From the IMG/VR virus record IMGVR_UViG_2565956714_000003: DNA of 32,066 nucleotides; one strand, 5' to 3'. Made by a program: the position numbers and the translations under genes. Shown here in pieces: positions 4,481-13,027 of this stretch. The notes beneath the pieces were generated by a model that saw only the letters and a list, made by a program, of their open reading frames with translations, was not told the DNA's origin and searched no databases. This DNA is from a virus. Taxonomy: Duplodnaviria; Heunggongvirae; Uroviricota; Caudoviricetes. Positions within the stretch are counted from its first letter, which is position 1. Each line of letters begins with the position of its first letter.

Positions 4481-4687
4481 TTAGCGATTCAGGCCGTTAC
4501 CGCGTCCGTCGAGAAAAACTTCCACGAGCAAATCACGGGTATAAGTGCGCTCGATGCCGCGATGCAGATAAAGCCGTCCGCGTAAATTAGCTGATGCAGT
4601 CCAGGTACCATCTTTGTGTTTGACCAGCATTCCTGGCATGACCGCGCCGCGATTAACGGTCTGCGTTCCGTAATGTTGATGAACCAT
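4481..4687 (-). CDS. Hypothetical early protein (68 aa) at the kil/cIII position of the leftward operon
   Basis: [32 protein letters not shown]... with strong RBS AGGAG 7 nt before ATG at 4687; the ORF track extends it to 4771 (96 aa) with a weaker start. Confidence 0.5.
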
Positions 4688-4959
4688 AAAAACTCCTGCC
4701 CGTAAGCTGGGCTGCTGAACATATAGAGACTTCTGCGCGTATTCAGGCGGTGGATGGCCGCCGGTTGTCATAACTAAGCCGCCTCGTTGAAGCGACTAAG
4801 GTATGAAATGTTGAGTTGATTTCAGCTGGTCACACCGACGTTCACGCGTCCGTTTCACCCCTCGCACTCCCCGAAGCCTGCTGAAATTCAAACTGCGGAT
4901 CTAAGCGGTCATCGCAACGGTGAATCAGGTGGTTGCCGTATCGTTGTGTTGTTGCGATG

Positions 4960-5045
4960 AACTTATTTAAAACTATAGTTGTTTTACCGTCAACAACAAA
5001 AGTTGTTTTATTGGTTGTTTTAGATATAACTGGTTGTATTTAGGA
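4960..5045 (-). promoter_or_regulatory. Candidate OL/pL operator-promoter region for the leftward early operon
   Basis: Cluster of the operator heptamer shared with OR: AACAAC-AAAA-GTTGTT palindrome 4992..5007, TGGTTGT at 5012..5018 and 5031..5037, plus palindrome AACTATAGTT 4971..4980. Confidence 0.5.
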
Positions 5046-5131
5046 TGGATTTATTTTGTGACTTGAATCGCATAGCGATAACTGAAGCGAGGTTATGGTG
5101 GTTTTTTTAACGGTGTGTGTGATGAGGGGAG

Positions 5132-5161
5132 GGCAAAAGAAAACCCGGCACGGTGACCGGG
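5132..5161 (-). terminator. Rho-independent terminator-like hairpin downstream of cI
   Basis: Stem CCCGG/CCGGG (5144..5148 / 5157..5161) with 8-nt loop, followed on the minus strand by UUUUCUUUUG (plus strand CAAAAGAAAA 5134..5143). Confidence 0.5.
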
Positions 5162-5282
5162 ATTCTTACGCCGTTAGGTAAAGATATTATTGCGGTGGCT
5201 TAATATTACTACCTAGAGCAAAGATAGGAATTAGTTCTTTACTGAATGAGCACAATGCCCAGTTGATAATTTTTAATTGGTA

Positions 5283-5972
5283 CTACCCATGCTTCCTATA
5301 TGTCTGCGGCATGCTCCCAATAACCTTACCGAAGATGAACACCCGGTTCATCTCGTCTTTCTCGATCGGGTCCCACGGTGAGTAGCTTTTGTTATCAGAG
5401 ATGACCAGCAGCTTATCCTTCATCATTTGCAGGCGCTTTACATGGGCTGTGTCGTCGTACAGAAACGCATAGATACCATCACCGTCGAAAGATTTAACTG
5501 TGATATCAACGAACAGCAGATCACCTGGTTCGATCGTTCCTGACATGCTGTCACCACGCACGTTAATGATGCGGATATTTTCCGCCTTCCTACCATCGAA
5601 CATATGACGAGCATCGTCAAACGAGTACTCAACCGAGCGTAGAACTTCTACAAACTCACGGTTGATGACTCCCGGCCCAGCACTGACTTCTATATCAAGA
5701 ACGTCAATCTTGAAGTATTTGGAATGGCTGACAGTTGATTGTATTGGTTGCACTGTACTGTCTGACATATTTCCAACGCCAGAAGATAACCATTCTGCGC
5801 GCACACCCAAAGCGTTCGCGATCTCCACGATTTTAGTTGTTTGATTAGCTTTCCCTGTTTCGATTTTCTGAATAGCAGCTTGGCTAACCCCGACCAAATC
5901 CCCAAGCGCCTTTTGTGTAAGGCCTCGCGCTAATCTGGCTTCTTTAAGTCTTTCTGAGAGTGTTGTTTTCAT
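5283..5972 (-). CDS. cI: CI-type prophage repressor (HTH_XRE N-domain, LexA/S24 peptidase-like C-domain)
   Basis: ORF with HTH LTQKALGDLVGVSQAAIQKIETG, an Ala-Gly (SAGPG) candidate autocleavage site, and GDSM...VKRL Ser-Lys dyad motifs; divergent from cro; start assigned to Met at 5972, while the track ORF reads through the operators to 6038. Confidence 0.85.
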   Translation of the reverse strand: MKTTLSERLKEARLARGLTQKALGDLVGVSQAAIQKIETGKANQTTKIVEIANALGVRAEWLSSGVGNMSDSTVQPIQSTVSHSKYFKIDVLDIEVSAGPGVINREFVEVLRSVEYSFDDARHMFDGRKAENIRIINVRGDSMSGTIEPGDLLFVDITVKSFDGDGIYAFLYDDTAHVKRLQMMKDKLLVISDNKSYSPWDPIEKDEMNRVFIFGKVIGSMPQTYRKHG

Positions 5973-6076
5973 AGTCCAAATGTACAACCAAGGTTTTATT
6001 TCATCAAACGAAAATGGTTGTTGACTAAAAACAACCATAGTTTTAATCTTGATTCAAATTAACCACGGAGGTTGTT
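5973..6076. promoter_or_regulatory. OR operator / divergent promoter region between cI and cro
   Basis: Heptamer ACAACCA at 5984..5990 and 6031..6037, TGGTTGT at 6016..6022; perfect inverted repeat ATGGTTGTT-N7-AACAACCAT (6014..6038) overlapping a TTGACT -35-like hexamer (6021..6026) with TTTAAT -10-like hexamer at 6042..6047. Confidence 0.7.
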
Positions 6077-6307
6077 ATGAACCCAGCTATCAAAACAGCG
6101 ATCAATATCGTTGGTTCACAAAAGAAACTGGGCGCTGCTTGCGAAGTTTCACAGCAGGCCGTCTATAAGTGGCTTCACAACAAAGCAAAGGTATCCCCTG
6201 AACATGTCGGCAGCATTGTTACGGCTACTGGTGGAGTAGTGAAGGCATACCAGATTCGCCCGGATCTTCCGAAGTTGTTTCCACACACCGAAAAGAACGC
6301 AGCTTAA
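6077..6307 (+). CDS. cro: Cro-like repressor (YdaS-family small HTH protein)
   Basis: 76-aa ORF divergent from cI; RBS GGAGG; HTH-like segment KKLGAACEVSQQAVYKWL. Confidence 0.8.
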   Translation: MNPAIKTAINIVGSQKKLGAACEVSQQAVYKWLHNKAKVSPEHVGSIVTATGGVVKAYQIRPDLPKLFPHTEKNAA

Positions 6308-6319
6308 ATTTCCATTTCA

Positions 6320-6332
6320 CGCTCTTTAACAA
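6320..6332 (+). promoter_or_regulatory. boxA-like antitermination motif downstream of cro
   Basis: CGCTCTTTAACAA matches the boxA consensus (lambda CGCTCTTA; rrn-type TGCTCTTTAACAA) at the position nutR occupies in lambda; no obvious boxB hairpin follows. Confidence 0.45.
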
Positions 6333-6376
6333 TAAGCAATCAACTTAACAGTCAATTCAAACTAAAGGAGTCAATT

Positions 6377-6916
6377 ATGCAACCACTTACATACCAACAG
6401 ACTAGCGGATTTAGCCCGACTGCGGTGATAAATCGTTCTCAAACAAAACAGGTGCCAGGCCACGAAAAAATCCGTGATGCCGTCCGCGCTTGGTCGGCTG
6501 AAGATAATCAGGATGTCGTTGCCACACTCATTGTGAATGAGTATCGGGAGCAGGGCGGCGGCACCATCGATTTCCCTGATGATGTCAGCCGTGCACGCCA
6601 GAAGCTGTTCCGCTTCCTCGATAACAAATTCGATTCTGAAAAATACCGAAATAACGTGCGTGAACTGACCCCGGCAATTCTGGCGGTACTACCGCTGGAA
6701 TATCGCGGTTACCTGGTTGAGCAGGATAGCTTCATGGCTAGGTTGGCTGAAATGGAAAAGGAACTCAGTGAGGCAAAACAGGCTGTCATTCTCAACGCAC
6801 CACGCCACCAGAAACTGAAGGAAATTAGTGAAGGTATTGTGTCGATGTTTCGTGTGGACCCAGATCTGGCTGGTCCATTGATGGCGATGGTTACTACCAT
6901 GCTGGGGGCGATATGA
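6377..6916 (+). CDS. CII-position regulatory protein, YdaT-like (179 aa)
   Basis: ORF with RBS AAGGAG between cro and O; motifs EYREQGGG and LTPAILAVLPLEYR resemble Rac YdaT as I remember it. Confidence 0.55.
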   Translation: MQPLTYQQTSGFSPTAVINRSQTKQVPGHEKIRDAVRAWSAEDNQDVVATLIVNEYREQGGGTIDFPDDVSRARQKLFRFLDNKFDSEKYRNNVRELTPAILAVLPLEYRGYLVEQDSFMARLAEMEKELSEAKQAVILNAPRHQKLKEISEGIVSMFRVDPDLAGPLMAMVTTMLGAI

Positions 6917-7002
6917 CAGGTTCAGAAATGGCGAAAGCCGGTCTGCTGGAACAGAACCGACTTTCAGGTGCAAATCGTAACACACTCATTGCGGGAGGAA
7001 TT

Positions 7003-7932
7003 ATGGCAAACACTGCTGAGATATTCAATTTTCCAGTGCCGGATGCGGCACAAAAGGAGCCGCGCGTGGCAGATCTCGATGATGGTTATACGCGCATTGC
7101 AAATGAGTTGCTGGAAGCTGTGATGCTGGCCGGATTAACACAGCACCAGCTTCTGGTCTTCCTGGCTGTCATGCGCAAAACATATGGCTTTAATAAAAAA
7201 CTGGATTGGGTGAGCAACGAGCAACTTTCCGAGTTGACCGGGATATTGCCGCACAAGTGTTCTGCTGCAAAAAGTGTTCTGGTAAAGCGTGGGATTTTTA
7301 TTCAGAGCGGGCGGAATATCGGCATTAATAATGTGGTCAGTGAATGGTCAACATTACCCGAATCAGGTAAGAAAAATAAAGTTTACCTGAAAGAGGTAAA
7401 TTTACCTGAATCAGGTAAGAAAAGTTTACCCAAATCAGGTAAAGGCACTTACCCGAATCAGGTAAACACAAAAGACAAACTAACAAAAGACAATATAAAA
7501 CCTTATTCGTCCGAGAATTCTGGCGAATACTCTGACCAGCCAGAAAACGACCTTCCTGTGGTGAAACCGGATGCTGCGATTCAGAGCGGCAGCAAGTGGG
7601 GGACAGCAGAAGACCTGACCGCCGCAGAGTGGATGTTTGACATGGTGAAGACCATCGCGCCATCAGCCAGAAAACCGAATTTTGCAGGGTGGGCTAACGA
7701 TATCCGCCTGATGCGTGAACGTGACGGACGTAACCACCGCGACATGTGCGTGCTGTTCCGCTGGGCATGCCAGGACAACTTCTGGTCCGGTAACGTGCTA
7801 AGTCCGGCCAAACTCCGTGACAAGTGGACCCAACTCGAAATCAACCGTAACAAGCAACAGGCTGGAGTGACAGCCGGAAAATCAAAACTGGACCTGACAA
7901 ACACTGACTGGATTTATGGGGTGGATTTATGA
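7003..7932 (+). CDS. O: Replication initiator O (non-lambda N-terminal iteron-binding domain, lambda-type C-terminal domain)
   Basis: C-terminal ~100 aa near-identical to lambda O (...WMFDMVKTIAPSARKPNFAGWANDIRLMRERDGRNHRDMCVLFRWACQDNFW...); N-terminal half differs from lambda O; RBS GGGAGG before ATG 7003; the track ORF starts upstream at 6913. Confidence 0.9.
   Translation: MANTAEIFNFPVPDAAQKEPRVADLDDGYTRIANELLEAVMLAGLTQHQLLVFLAVMRKTYGFNKKLDWVSNEQLSELTGILPHKCSAAKSVLVKRGIFIQSGRNIGINNVVSEWSTLPESGKKNKVYLKEVNLPESGKKSLPKSGKGTYPNQVNTKDKLTKDNIKPYSSENSGEYSDQPENDLPVVKPDAAIQSGSKWGTAEDLTAAEWMFDMVKTIAPSARKPNFAGWANDIRLMRERDGRNHRDMCVLFRWACQDNFWSGNVLSPAKLRDKWTQLEINRNKQQAGVTAGKSKLDLTNTDWIYGVDL
7354..7465. 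repeat. Replication origin iterons (five ~17-bp repeats) inside the O coding region, followed by an A-rich segment
   Basis: TTACCCGAATCAGGTAA (7354..7370), TTACCTGAAAGAGGTAA (7383..7399), TTACCTGAATCAGGTAA (7402..7418), TTACCCAAATCAGGTAA (7426..7442), TTACCCGAATCAGGTAA (7449..7465); each has an internal TTACC...GGTAA dyad; A-rich stretch 7466..7510. Confidence 0.85.
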
Positions 7933-8929: not shown

Positions 8930-8996
8930 TGAAACAGGTGAGTTGAGTTCAAACTGTAGTACAATTCTCTCCAGTTTGAACAGGAAAGAATATGCT

Positions 8997-9329
8997 ATGA
9001 ACCCTTATATTTATCTTGGTGGTGCAATACTTGCAGAGGTCATTGGTACAACCTTAATGAAGTTTTCAGAAGGTTTTACACGGTTATGGCCATCTGTTGG
9101 TACAATTATTTGTTATTGTGCATCATTCTGGTTATTAGCTCAGACGCTGGCTTATATTCCTACAGGGATTGCTTATGCTATCTGGTCAGGAGTCGGTATT
9201 GTCCTGATTAGCTTACTGTCATGGGGACTTTTCGTCCAACGGCTGGACCTGCCAGCCATTATAGGCATGATGTTGATTTGTGCCGGTGTGTTGGTTATTA
9301 ATCTATTGTCACGAAGCACACCACATTAA
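8997..9329 (+). CDS. emrE: Small multidrug resistance (SMR) efflux transporter EmrE
   Basis: 110-aa ORF MNPYIYLGGAILAEVIGTTLMKFSEGFTRLWPSVGTIICYCASFWLLAQTLAYIPTGIAYAIWSGVGIVL... recognised as EmrE (four TM helices, conserved membrane Glu in the first helix). Confidence 0.95.
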   Translation: MNPYIYLGGAILAEVIGTTLMKFSEGFTRLWPSVGTIICYCASFWLLAQTLAYIPTGIAYAIWSGVGIVLISLLSWGLFVQRLDLPAIIGMMLICAGVLVINLLSRSTPH

Positions 9330-9359
9330 AAATAATTTGTTTCTAAACTACTAAAATAT

Positions 9360-9400
9360 GGAGGCTCTTATATTTATATGAGCCTCGTTTTATGCTTTTT
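9360..9400 (+). terminator. Rho-independent terminator downstream of emrE
   Basis: Stem GGAGGCTC/GAGCCTC with AT-rich loop, followed by GTTTTATGCTTTTT. Confidence 0.6.
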
Positions 9401-9585
9401 GTTAATGTCTTTATTTTTTTATGTATTCTTTTGTGCTTTCAAGATTATGGCGTAAGAAAATTGCAATACGATTATTGTTGTATATTCAAGATAATGTGAC
9501 CTTAATTGTCTTTTTAAATAAAAATTAAACAAAAATTATATCCCACCACTAATGTTTATAAAAGCATACGTTAGCAGGTGTCACC

Positions 9586-11112
9586 ATGAAAAAAGCCATA
9601 GCATATATGCGATTTTCATCACCAGGTCAGATGTCTGGCGACTCATTAAACCGACAGAGAAGACTTATTGCTGAATGGTTAAAGGTAAATAGTGATTATT
9701 ATCTTGATACCATAACATATGAAGATTTAGGATTAAGTGCATTCAAAGGAAAGCATGCACAATCAGGAGCTTTTTCGGAATTTTTAGATGCTATAGAGCA
9801 TGGTTATATATTGCCAGGAACTACATTGTTAGTTGAAAGTCTGGACAGACTTTCAAGAGAAAAAGTCGGTGAAGCGATTGAACGTCTGAAATTGATTTTG
9901 AATCACGGTATTGATGTTATAACTCTTTGCGACAATACAGTCTATAATATTGACTCTTTGAATGAGCCATATTCATTAATAAAAGCCATACTTATAGCAC
10001 AAAGGGCAAATGAAGAAAGCGAGATAAAGTCAAGTCGGGTTAAATTATCATGGAAGAAAAAACGGCAGGATGCACTGGAATCAGGTACGATTATGACGGC
10101 GTCTTGTCCGAGATGGCTCTCCTTAGATGACAAAAGAACGGCTTTTGTTCCAGACCCCGACAGGGTGAAAACTATTGAGCTAATTTTTAAACTCAGGATG
10201 GAAAGGCGCTCATTGAATGCAATAGCCAAGTATTTAAATGATCATGCTGTAAAGAATTTCTCAGGAAAAGAAAGTGCATGGGGACCTTCTGTAATTGAAA
10301 AATTATTAGCGAATAAAGCTCTGATAGGTATATGCGTACCTTCATATCGTGCAAGAGGGAAAGGAATAAGTGAAATCGCGGGCTATTATCCCAGAGTCAT
10401 ATCAGATGATTTGTTTTACGCTGTACAGGAAATTCGGTTGGCACCTTTTGGTATTAGCAATAGTAGCAAGAATCCTATGCTAATAAATCTACTTCGAACA
10501 GTTATGAAGTGTGAGGCTTGTGGTAATACCATGATTGTTCATGCGGTATCTGGAAGTTTGCATGGCTATTATGTTTGTCCGATGAGAAGATTACATCGAT
10601 GTGACAGGCCATCAATAAAAAGAGATTTGGTTGATTATAATATCATTAATGAATTGCTTTTTAATTGTAGCAAAATTCAACCAGTTGAAAACAAGAAAGA
10701 TGCTAATGAAACTTTAGAGTTAAAAATTATTGAGCTTCAGATGAAAATTAATAATTTAATCGTTGCATTGTCTGTCGCGCCTGAAGTTACCGCTATAGCA
10801 GAGAAAATAAGACTATTAGATAAGGAATTACGAAGGGCTTCGGTATCATTGAAAACTTTGAAGAGTAAAGGTGTAAATTCATTCAGTGATTTTTATGCTA
10901 TTGACTTAACCAGTAAAAATGGACGAGAGTTATGCCGTACACTTGCCTATAAAACATTCGAAAAAATCATAATTAATACGGATAATAAAACCTGTGATAT
11001 CTATTTTATGAATGGCATTGTTTTTAAACACTATCCTTTAATGAAAGTAATATCCGCCCAGCAGGCGATAAGTGCTCTCAAATATATGGTTGATGGTGAG
11101 ATTTATTTCTAA
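9586..11112 (+). CDS. ybcK: Large serine recombinase (resolvase/invertase-type catalytic domain plus recombinase and Cys-rich zinc-ribbon region)
   Basis: 508-aa ORF; N-terminal AIAYMRFSSPGQ matches the serine-recombinase active-site motif Y-x-R-x-S-x3-Q; Cys cluster CEACGN...CPMRRLHRCDRP; gene body AT-rich. Confidence 0.85.
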   Translation: MKKAIAYMRFSSPGQMSGDSLNRQRRLIAEWLKVNSDYYLDTITYEDLGLSAFKGKHAQSGAFSEFLDAIEHGYILPGTTLLVESLDRLSREKVGEAIERLKLILNHGIDVITLCDNTVYNIDSLNEPYSLIKAILIAQRANEESEIKSSRVKLSWKKKRQDALESGTIMTASCPRWLSLDDKRTAFVPDPDRVKTIELIFKLRMERRSLNAIAKYLNDHAVKNFSGKESAWGPSVIEKLLANKALIGICVPSYRARGKGISEIAGYYPRVISDDLFYAVQEIRLAPFGISNSSKNPMLINLLRTVMKCEACGNTMIVHAVSGSLHGYYVCPMRRLHRCDRPSIKRDLVDYNIINELLFNCSKIQPVENKKDANETLELKIIELQMKINNLIVALSVAPEVTAIAEKIRLLDKELRRASVSLKTLKSKGVNSFSDFYAIDLTSKNGRELCRTLAYKTFEKIIINTDNKTCDIYFMNGIVFKHYPLMKVISAQQAISALKYMVDGEIYF

Positions 11113-11310
11113 ATAATGATCTTGGATTTTAAGTTATGCTATGATGATAAAGTGCAAGACAGAATTAATTATCTTTAACGAAACTTAATGGGTAATTACT
11201 TTGTTTGCTCCCACAAGCGAGTTTTGTACGGCTGTATTGGGGTAGTAAATGAGCTATACAATCTTAATCATTTGTTAGGTGAGAACTCTTGGTCGCAGAT
11301 TCAAATACTG

Positions 11311-11360
11311 AAAATACGTGACAAATTATTATGAGCAAAATGGTGTATGTCACGTATTTT
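11311..11360. repeat. 50-bp palindromic element: 13-bp perfect inverted repeats flanking a 24-bp spacer
   Basis: AAAATACGTGACA (11311..11323) and its exact reverse complement TGTCACGTATTTT (11348..11360) in the AT-rich ybcK-ybcL intergenic region. Confidence 0.8.
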
Positions 11361-11575
11361 GAATGGTAGGTTAAAAAATAACACCGACTTTCGTAGGTAT
11401 TACTAATAATAAAGCAGAGTTTTTAATAGTATCAATGTGCTTTGTGTATATTGTGGCAAATAATTGGGTTGGGGGTACAATTGTGATTGCTTTTGCATGA
11501 ACATTGCGCCTTTATGCATAATGAGATAAAGGAATATCAAATAAAATAACGATAGGTCATAACAAAGAGGTTTTT

Positions 11576-12127
11576 ATGAAAACACTTATCGTTTCAACTG
11601 TATTGGCATTCATAACATTTTCTGCGCAGGCTGCAGCATTTCAGGTCACTAGTAATGAAATAAAAACAGGAGAGCAACTTACAACGTCTCATGTCTTTTC
11701 TGGATTTGGGTGTGAAGGTGGTAATACATCGCCCTCATTAACCTGGTCTGGTGTTCCTGAAGGTACCAAAAGCTTTGCCGTAACTGTATATGATCCAGAT
11801 GCACCTACAGGCAGTGGTTGGTGGCATTGGACTGTTGTTAATATTCCAGCAACAGTAACATATTTGCCCGTTGATGCAGGAAGACGTGATGGAACAAAAC
11901 TGCCGACTGGTGCTGTTCAAGGCCGAAATGATTTTGGCTATGCTGGGTTTGGTGGCGCATGTCCTCCTAAAGGAGATAAACCACATCATTACCAGTTTAA
12001 AGTATGGGCTCTAAAAACTGAAAAGATTCCTGTAGATTCTAACTCCAGCGGAGCGTTAGTTGGTTATATGCTTAATGCTAATAAAATCGCAACCGCTGAG
12101 ATAACACCAGTTTATGAGATAAAGTAG
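11576..12127 (+). CDS. ybcL: Periplasmic PEBP/RKIP-family protein (UPF0098)
   Basis: 183-aa ORF with signal peptide MKTLIVSTVLAFITFSAQA and PEBP-like core (YDPDAP...GWWHW...HHYQFKVWAL). Confidence 0.9.
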   Translation: MKTLIVSTVLAFITFSAQAAAFQVTSNEIKTGEQLTTSHVFSGFGCEGGNTSPSLTWSGVPEGTKSFAVTVYDPDAPTGSGWWHWTVVNIPATVTYLPVDAGRRDGTKLPTGAVQGRNDFGYAGFGGACPPKGDKPHHYQFKVWALKTEKIPVDSNSSGALVGYMLNANKIATAEITPVYEIK

Positions 12128-12136
12128 GGTGAGAGT

Positions 12137-12934
12137 ATGCTGGCAAGAGGTAAGACTAACTTAAAGATCGAAGAAATACGGATGCATAAACATCATGAGA
12201 TTCATAGGGTTAAGCCTCTTATGCCAGCTTTGTGTCGTATCCGTCAGGGAAAGAAAGTTATCAATTGGGAGACGCATACTTTAACTGTTGATAATAATCA
12301 AATAATATTATTTCCTTGTAGTTATGAATTTTATATTGAGAATTATCCTGAAGCAGGGCTTTATCTTGCAGAAATGCTTTACTTACCCATTGATTTAATT
12401 GAGAGGTTCCAAAAACTTTATACGGTAACTGATCAAATACGTAACAAAACAAGTTTCTTTTTACCTCAGAATCCTGAGTTAATATATTGTTGGGAGCAAC
12501 TAAAAACATCTGTTTCCCGAGGCTTCTCAACTAAAATTCAGGAGCACTTAGCAATGGGCGTTCTACTTTCGTTAGGAGTGAATCATGTTAATCATTTACT
12601 TTTATCATATAGTAAACAATCATTGATAAGTCGTTGTTATAACCTGCTGCTATCCGAACCCGGCACAAAATGGACAGCAAACAAGGTTGCACGATATCTC
12701 TACATTTCTGTTTCTACATTACATCGCCGTCTAGCAAGCGAGGGGGTAAGTTTCCAAAGTATACTGGACGATGTGAGGTTAAATAATGCGTTGTCTGCTA
12801 TACAAACGACGGTAAAACCTATAAGCGAGATTGCCAGAGAAAATGGTTATAAGTGTCCTTCTCGTTTTACTGAAAGATTTCATAATCGTTTTAATATAAC
12901 ACCAAGAGAGATAAGAAAAGCTTCCAGAGAGTAA
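12137..12934 (+). CDS. ybcM: AraC-family transcriptional regulator
   Basis: 265-aa ORF starting 9 nt after the ybcL stop (operon-like); C-terminal AraC-type HTH region ([21 protein letters not shown]...[18 protein letters not shown]). Confidence 0.85.
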
Positions 12935-12998
12935 AAGTGTTTTAAGAAGGAGCAATTCTATCGATTTTGATTTTGGGAAATCAACACGGCATAATTAT

Positions 12999-13027
12999 GT
13001 CACCGGAGCCTGAACAACTCCGGTGAC
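12999..13027 (+). other. Perfect 10-bp stem-loop between ybcM and ylcH
   Basis: GTCACCGGAG (12999..13008) ... CTCCGGTGAC (13018..13027) with 9-nt loop; no U-run follows. Confidence 0.5.

Follow-up and report, generated by a model that had tools for sequence, protein, structure and literature searches.

Positions 6077-6916 of the viral sequence IMGVR_UViG_2565956714_000003, which we analyzed over its whole length of 32,066 nt (the window), very probably hold the cro and cII genes of a DLP12/phi80-like prophage, an ordinary pair of lysis/lysogeny regulators in which CII would act from a box inside its own gene on an adjacent leftward promoter. The preliminary description of this sequence had seen a YdaS/YdaT-like pair in the Cro and CII positions, and it noted that such pairs were annotated as a toxin-antitoxin system and later argued to be analogues of Cro and CII, in agreement with the published record (PMC5917428, PMC8630535, PMC11879457). 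It was a prediction algorithm that had assigned the toxin-antitoxin label, without experimental confirmation, and Casjens and Jobling argued for Cro and CII (PMC5917428); Jurenas et al. then showed Cro and CII roles experimentally for the CP-933P pair and remarked on the homology to phi80 CII (PMC8630535). The structure of CP-933P YdaT and its site TTGATT-N6-AATCAA were published in 2023 (PMC9986795), and a 2025 study reported that Rac YdaT binds ATGATT-N6-AATCAA, a site overlapping its own start codon, and activates a reverse promoter that points to racR (PMC11879457). In short, the Cro/CII identity of the pair was known before, and it is the database name that misleads. What is new in this analysis, and computational only, is a predicted family-wide CII box in the N-terminal leader of the protein, a predicted CII-dependent promoter whose adjacent -10 hexamer stands at class II distance and is common to Rac, and a conserved perfect box in the nin region.

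The second gene of the pair, whose open reading frame (ORF) is preceded by AAGGAG 7 nt upstream of its start, follows a cro-like gene and precedes the replication genes, with the repressor gene divergent. Its 179-aa product contains both motifs, EYREQGGG and LTPAILAVLP, that had suggested YdaT; they align with EYLRQGGG and LIPAILAILP of Rac YdaT and are the best-conserved stretches of that alignment. The Pfam model YdaT_toxin (PF06254) scores 103.4 bits with the protein (cut-off 21) and covers profile positions 1-90 of 92, PHROG 163 (“CII-like transcriptional activator”) spans the full protein with E 1.4e-67, and BLASTP gives 36% identity over 96 aa to Rac YdaT of Escherichia coli K-12 (E 2e-13), all of which confirms the YdaT-like character of the protein. 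By these and the following comparisons, however, the closest known relative is the genetically named phi80 CII and not Rac YdaT. The protein is identical (100%) to those annotated as “cII” or “CII-like transcriptional activator” in phages PhiR5_1 and IdasGreatGrand, shares 95-99% identity with its counterparts in a dozen other isolated E. coli phages and 66% over residues 1-179 with the CII proteins of phi80 and mEp237, and is 52% identical over its full length to the cII products of HK225 and HK639. The proteins of phi80 (JX871397 PHI80_49), mEp237, HK225 and HK639 are, like that of the window, 179-181 aa long and encoded between Cro-like and O-like genes.

Structural comparison points in the same direction. 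The solved YdaT structures 8bt1 and 3c4r were the sole sequence matches of the 179-aa protein in the PDB, and a Foldseek search of the PDB with its AlphaFold2 model (mean predicted local distance difference test, pLDDT, 78) returned the same two with probability 1.0 and target-normalized TM-scores of 0.67-0.71, all others having E>1; Foldseek against the BFVD viral models gave no meaningful match. In the model, residues 1-26 are disordered, and helices span residues 29-43, 45-58, 70-81, 88-104, 107-113 and 119-138, followed by 143-160 and 162-178, with helix 119-138 corresponding to the YdaT oligomerization helix. The fold is thus that of CP-933P YdaT (8bt1) and Rac YdaT (b1358; homologue 3c4r), at a TM-score of ~0.7, although these share only 27-36% identity with the window protein. 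The recognition helix reads QKLFRFLD in the window, and its R79 aligns with the arginine of the YdaT motifs QKIFRWLD and IYHRWL, the conserved residue known as Arg60 in CP-933P and R57 in Rac, which is invariant in a 29-sequence alignment. As judged from sequence and model, the protein is a YdaT-family CII with a POU-like helix-turn-helix (HTH) domain and helical oligomerization helices, of the same kind as phi80 CII.

The preliminary description had left a C-terminal extension relative to the 140-aa Rac protein unexplained. The protein is indeed longer, but the difference is largely N-terminal and its length is normal for the family. Residues 29-122 align with Rac YdaT 5-98, and of the 39 extra residues, ~24 are N-terminal and ~15 C-terminal; the added length consists of the disordered 26-aa leader and of the two C-terminal helices 143-160 and 162-178, whereas CP-933P and Rac YdaT lack the leader and the last C-terminal helix or helices (143-178). 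Conservation in the 29-sequence alignment extends to both ends, nearly all of the 120 best database matches are 178-182 aa long, and 179-181 aa is typical of the phi80-CII subfamily. The long proteins of the window and phi80 score 99-103 bits against YdaT_toxin, compared to 44.7 bits for Rac YdaT, which is matched at positions 6-66 only. On this comparison, the long form is typical of the family and Rac YdaT is a short outlier.

The first gene of the pair encodes a 76-aa protein that had been described as YdaS-like, and this impression held. Pfam YdaS_toxin (PF15943) matches it at 62.2 bits (cut-off 30), PHROG 35 (“transcriptional repressor”) also matches it, BLASTP aligns it with Rac YdaS at 30% identity over 63 aa (E 1e-8), and its best sequence match among solved structures is the Cro protein 3bd1. 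The pairwise alignments with Rac YdaS and YdaT that the preliminary description proposed accordingly gave significant similarity for both proteins. The ORF is preceded by the Shine-Dalgarno sequence ACGGAGG, its start lies 28 nt past the predicted pR -10, and cro is the first gene of a rightward operon adjoining the operators. By its sequence matches, Cro is a YdaS-family HTH protein; Rac YdaS and the P22/Xylella-type Cro proteins are likewise small, all-helical HTH proteins encoded first in a rightward operon, although Rac YdaS has 98 aa. The placement of the pair between a cI-type repressor and O, which had been taken to support a regulatory role, also stood: an S24/HTH repressor gene lies upstream on the minus strand, and O, P and ren follow downstream.

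A predicted CII box and leftward promoter inside cII

We collected 68 loci from enterobacterial genomes in addition to those of phi80, HK225 and mEp237, and scanned 64 family loci for the experimentally defined YdaT box, TTGATT-N6-AATCAA, at fixed offsets from the start codon. The loci averaged 3.8 mismatches at one offset, +49 from the ATG, compared to 9.05 (SD 0.65) at the other offsets from -400 to +560, i.e., z ~ -8. The family dyad at this place approximates YTGAKn-N6-nWATCAw and covers codons 17-22, inside the disordered leader; the window version, GTGATA-N6-TCTCAA, keeps the TGAT...TCAA core and is the top match in the window to a position weight matrix (PWM) of the family that was built without the window. 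The box persists as the encoded peptide changes, with MINRAQ encoded by ATGATAAATCGCnnTCAA, MIYQNR by ATGATTTACCAGAATCGC (HK225) and LIFENQ by TTGATTTTTGAAAATCAG (locus L041), and a rare ATA isoleucine codon is almost universal within it. We predict this box to be the binding place of YdaT-type CII in phi80-like phages.

Beyond the box, a TAnnnT hexamer occurs on the opposite strand at a distance of exactly 20 nt in 53 of 54 unique loci, compared to 0.65 of 54 on average at other offsets. The TAnnnT hexamers come in thirteen versions, and the codons that they occupy (8-10) vary in amino acid. In-frame indels move the offset of the box from the start codon (to +43 in locus L062 and to +55 in L056) and leave the spacing between box and hexamer unchanged. 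The same arrangement recurs at the footprinted Rac box TTGATTTTCATGAATCAT, which has the near-consensus -10 TATGAT (NC_000913 ~1420651-1420656) at 20 nt on the racR-ward strand (L001 2152-2195, from the 3′ end of ydaS to the start of ydaT), and in a Citrobacter phage (TATTAT), an Aeromonas phage (TAACAT) and Klebsiella Kp4865-4 (TATGAT), while Klebsiella Kp4882-1 and an Actinobacillus phage carry TAnnnT at 21 nt. If the hexamer is taken as a -10, the box is centered at ~ -41.5, where class II activators classically bind, and transcription would start at ~6392. These data are consistent with a predicted leftward, CII-dependent promoter beside the box. The 26-residue leader, which is without counterpart in Rac YdaT, is then the part of the ORF that reads across the predicted promoter; the box of CP-933P and Rac YdaT, which lack this leader, accordingly falls between genes or across the start codon. 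Box type and immunity-region position are otherwise shared with those two systems.

Synonymous codon identity is 0.6-1.0 in codons 2-10, compared to ~0.45 for the gene. Codons 2-7 (family consensus ATGCAnTCACTTnCnTATCAACA; window 6378-6400), which lie downstream of the predicted promoter start, are conserved at synonymous sites, and both ATC triplets of the consensus are replaced by ACC in the window. Phages 4C10 and PhiR68_2 carry the cII allele of the window (97% identical) behind a Cro of 48% identity and a different spacer, with the homology break exactly at the cII ATG. Because the break falls there, box and -10 are always inherited with cII; lying inside the gene, they travel with it when cro and cI alleles are swapped.

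Taken as a whole, the proposed course of events would be the following. After infection or induction, pR (~6021-6049) would transcribe cro-cII-O-P. CII, probably as a tetramer, would bind GTGATA-N6-TCTCAA in its own codons 17-22 (6425-6442) and from ~ -41.5 would activate a weak leftward promoter with the -10 TAGTCT (6404-6399) and a start at ~6392. The leftward transcript would run antisense through cro into cI and so establish repression, as lambda pRE does; an oop-like antisense RNA would be made between cII and O, and a second, perfect dyad (12967-12984) over a nin-region -35 would be a probable further CII target in a repressor-type position.

Lambda CII and pRE are the functional analogue of this arrangement: a gene that follows cro, with an activator site and promoter in its first codons aimed back through cro to cI. 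Lambda CII is an HTH activator and a tetramer, and codons 4-8 of lambda cII contain the pRE site TTGC-N6-TTGC. The two proteins differ in what they recognize, which is a direct repeat flanking the -35 for lambda CII and an inverted repeat for YdaT-type proteins, and there is no sequence relationship between them; the 179-aa protein had no match to the lambda CII family (Pfam Phage_CII) at E<=0.01 and no NCBIfam model. The 179-aa protein would work like lambda CII but is not a member of its family. With respect to the promoter upstream of cI or int that the preliminary description suggested looking for, the search found the predicted leftward promoter within cII but no convincing site upstream of int: neither the pI-like site near int that lambda would lead one to expect nor a paQ-like site in Q had a convincing family-PWM match in the window.

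A further candidate lay in the cro-cII spacer, where TTGACT-N6-TTGATT on the minus strand (6338-6355) and a third TTGACT (6369-6376) could be read as a lambda-like CII site; we rejected it, as the count is at chance level (2 found, 0.76 expected). The same spacer (6338-6376) holds three A(A/G)TCAA repeats that resemble YdaT half-sites, including two exact AGTCAATT copies 19 nt apart. These repeats are part of the cro module, because the cro-cII spacer is unrelated, and the repeats are missing, in phages that share the cII allele. In phi80-type loci, though not in the window, a GC hairpin occupies this spacer.

A candidate second CII site in the nin region

The only perfect TTGATT-N6-AATCAA of the 32-kb window, TTGATTTTGGGAAATCAA, lies at 12967-12984, between ybcM and ylcH-ybcN. 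Its left half-site is the -35 of a conserved rightward promoter with a 17-nt spacer and the -10 CATAAT at 12990-12995, and the phage 82 record X92588 already lists this TTGATT-17-CATAAT promoter as a putative one. On the 3′ side of the promoter follows a hairpin (12999-13027), GTCACCGGAG-cctgaacaa-CTCCGGTGAC, whose loop is invariant and whose stem varies between phages by compensatory changes, and then ylcH and ybcN. Across six phages, the dyad keeps both half-sites without change, its six spacer bases vary freely and the sequence flanking it on the left shows no relationship. A scan of IMG/VR run with a variable gap yielded 121 instances, 104 of which carry TTGATT together with AATCAA, AATCAT or TATCAA, with 37 different spacers. 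In phi80 (46 kb), the sole site with at most two mismatches lies at the homologous place (element JX871397 38718-38809), and the phi80 group as a whole has the +49 box, the -10 hexamer, the nin-region dyad, CATAAT and the hairpin in common with the window.

The dyad goes together with the type of cII. A phi80-type cII was present in 36 of the 38 instances where the upstream cII could be typed, and all 19 complete phage records with the nin segment carry one. An identical box stands in the DLP12 prophage of E. coli K-12 (NC_000913 572284-572301), although DLP12 has lost its own cII. Since the dyad matches the published YdaT site, it is likely to be a second site for CII, and we predict it to be the second target, with a copy in the K-12 chromosome. 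Its position, centered at ~ -26.5 over the -35, suggests repression.

A fuller version of this idea, which we put forward tentatively and consider possible rather than probable, is that the dyad is a high-affinity second operator 3-6.5 kb downstream of cII, so that CII would activate cI from its weak intragenic box and would also directly shut the promoter feeding ninB...Q. Repression by CII would then do the job that the antisense promoter paQ does in lambda. The YdaT tetramer has two DNA-binding faces and could thus bridge both boxes, looping around the replication genes. If true, the nin operator would answer a puzzle posed by CP-933P YdaT, namely that one strong site is known for a two-faced tetramer, and it would predict binding of Rac YdaT to the DLP12 box of E. 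coli K-12 at 572,284. The literature searches, beyond whose reach the original phi80 papers of 1988 lay, found no described phi80 pRE, CII site or nin dyad. Together, the predictions on the intragenic box, the promoter and the nin site could settle the working of a widespread alternative to lambda CII.

Alternative readings

Several points weigh against CII acting from its intragenic box on a leftward promoter. The window box GTGATAAATCGTTCTCAA has mismatches to the CP-933P consensus at 4 of 12 positions. The activated promoter of Rac (PracR4) was published at ~190 bp from the YdaT box (PMC11879457), and the CP-933P YdaT box was said to cover the transcription start (PMC9986795); we predict nevertheless that the activated promoter adjoins the box (centered at ~ -41.5) throughout the family, Rac included. 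No CII-type site upstream of int was found in the window with the family PWM, and the literature searched held no experiment on the 179-aa protein or on phi80 CII binding sites. The nin box also occurs on one contig with a lambda-type cII, and its link to the cII type could reflect a shared phage lineage instead of function. Lastly, the conservation of the 5′ end of cII may reflect translation-initiation constraints or recent recombination.

This last point can be extended into a separate explanation, according to which the first ~70 nt of cII are conserved as a translation-initiation or mRNA constraint or as a recombination linker and the true CII target lies elsewhere. It draws on the strong conservation of codons 2-7 at synonymous sites, downstream of the predicted start, and on the tendency of mosaic junctions in lambdoid phages to coincide with conserved gene ends. 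We consider it unlikely, since the pattern matches an experimentally defined 12-nt dyad at a single fixed offset, is kept through differing amino acids and through the in-frame indels of L062 and L056 with the spacing from box to -10 fixed, and is seen again at the Rac box, whose place is intergenic or across the start codon.

To a similar degree, we doubt that the 179-aa protein is mainly a repressor acting over promoters (that of the nin region, and a site near pR), with only an indirect effect on cI. The strongest site in the window (12967-12984) does overlap a -35 and spacer, Rac YdaT footprints over the -35 and -10 of PydaST (PMC11879457), and the CP-933P structure paper terms YdaT a repressor (PMC9986795). 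A YdaT box with two mismatches (6049-6066) moreover overlaps the predicted pR -10 and start; such matches are at chance level in the window, however (7 found, 2.3 expected), and this one is not among the top family-PWM matches and is a weak lead. An activator at -41.5 better fits the arrangement of box, 20 nt and TAnnnT that is kept in 53 of 54 loci and across the YdaT family, and reporters show YdaT-dependent leftward activation, 29-fold in Rac (PMC11879457) and also in CP-933P (PMC8630535).

Very improbable is the remaining alternative, that the genes form a YdaS/YdaT toxin-antitoxin or toxin-repressor module in which a small HTH protein holds a 179-aa toxin in check. In its favor stand the names given by Pfam (“Bacterial toxin YdaS” and “Bacterial toxin ydaT”) and by PGAP, as well as the toxicity of ectopically expressed Rac YdaS and YdaT (PMC5700377, PMC5700373). 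The label was nonetheless an algorithm's, and the experimental literature rejects the model (PMC5917428, PMC8630535). The fold is not an enzymatic or target-poisoning toxin fold but a DNA-binding POU-like HTH whose sole structural relatives are YdaT regulators. Nor are the genes inherited as a unit: they are exchanged independently, as the 97%-identical cII allele behind a 48%-identical Cro with its junction at the cII ATG illustrates, and other (distant) YdaT-type genes follow plain HTH_3 Cro proteins that fall below the YdaS model. The genes also occupy the cro and cII slots of inducible phages that plate and lysogenize. The pair is not a toxin-antitoxin system, and we return to Cro and CII as its identity.

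The immunity region and its prophage

The window comprises, in full length, an intact lambdoid prophage of the DLP12/phi80-like kind. It is essentially Escherichia phage PhiR34_1, an inducible phage with which its immunity region shares 99.7% identity and its gene order agrees from int to the head genes. The immunity region is of the complete lambdoid type, with the order cI(S24)-OR-cro-cII-O-P-ren and matching pL/OL. A 1.8-kb immunity segment is present in 2226 of 5426 complete E. coli genomes (1504 of these 2226 at a coverage of at least 80%), where RefSeq/PGAP names the 179-aa protein “toxin YdaT domain-containing protein”; in thousands of E. coli genomes, a phage CII thus goes by the name of a toxin, which calls for caution in annotation. 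Coordinates of the features are collected in Table 1.

Table 1. Features of the immunity region, the cII-O gap and the nin region, in window coordinates.
Feature	Position	Strand	Basis or remark
cI-type repressor, HTH_3 + Peptidase_S24	5283..6038	-	Pfam Peptidase_S24 67 bits, HTH_3 49 bits; PHROG 4 “transcriptional repressor” from residue 23
OR region and predicted pR	5960..6076	.	repeated AACAACC/GGTTGTT half-sites (repeats D1, I2, I3)
Predicted pR	-35 TTGACT 6021-6026, 17-nt spacer, -10 TAATCT 6044-6049	+	inferred by reading the sequence
cro, 76-aa YdaS-family HTH regulator	6077..6307	+	Pfam YdaS_toxin, PHROG 35, BLASTP
cII, 179-aa YdaT-family protein, phi80 type	6377..6916	+	Pfam, PHROG 163, BLASTP, AlphaFold2/Foldseek
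Predicted -10 hexamer TAGTCT (6404-6399) of CII-dependent pRE-like promoter	6399..6404	-	TAnnnT 20 nt from box
Predicted CII (YdaT-type) box GTGATAAATCGTTCTCAA	6425..6442	.	within cII codons 17-22, family-wide dyad at +49
oop-like antisense RNA unit, cII-O gap	6925..7028	-	inferred from promoter scan, fold and position of phi80 M3
O-type replication initiator	7003..7932	+	likely start M31 of ORF opening at 6913
Perfect YdaT-box dyad TTGATTTTGGGAAATCAA (TTGATT-N6-AATCAA), candidate second CII operator	12967..12984	.	sole 0-mismatch match in window

On the left of the pair, the operators contain a perfect dyad, GGTTGTT-N7-AACAACC, at 6016-6036, and the promoter-operator block of pR/OR, GTTGAC..AAACAAC.ATAGTTTTAA, recurs at pL/OL (~4965-5045). 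As listed, the 251-aa cI ORF has its start (6038) within the operator palindrome, and several phage records use this long form; because the family matches begin at residue 23, translation probably starts at M23 (5972) instead. The cI transcript ends just upstream of pL at a strong intrinsic terminator (5161-5144, minus strand). From pL to the recombination genes (window 4481-5283), there is no N-like antiterminator gene, and the first ORF past pL is Kil-like (PHROG 294), whereas phi80 has an N gene. Phi80 also differs from the window in that its cI, cro and operators are of another specificity.

On the right, the ORF annotation of O is most likely 30 codons too long, with a start at 7003: the ORF matches PHROG 277 from residue 31 and Pfam Phage_rep_O from residue 51, and the alignment with phi80 gene 15, HK225 and mEp237 begins at ATG 7003, which is preceded by GGAGGA. 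The 86-bp gap between cII and O contains a leftward promoter-like sequence, TTGAAT-17-CATAAT (7028..7000), found in a promoter scan, and a hairpin at 6933-6965 (-24.1 kcal/mol, z -2.5). This putative oop-like unit aligns in position with the annotated M3 RNA of phi80, a “homolog of lambda oop” that there too lies downstream of cII, as oop antisense RNA does in lambda; Rfam scans for oop or nut-like RNAs were negative, both at the gathering threshold and at E<=1. The stretch from ren to the nin region (window 8943-12934) contains an inserted cargo block of emrE, ylcJ, ybcK (recombinase-family), ybcL and ybcM (AraC-type), as in K-12 DLP12. The window represents an intact, ancestor-like state with cI-cro-cII-O-P present, whereas K-12 DLP12 is a deleted remnant interrupted by IS3.

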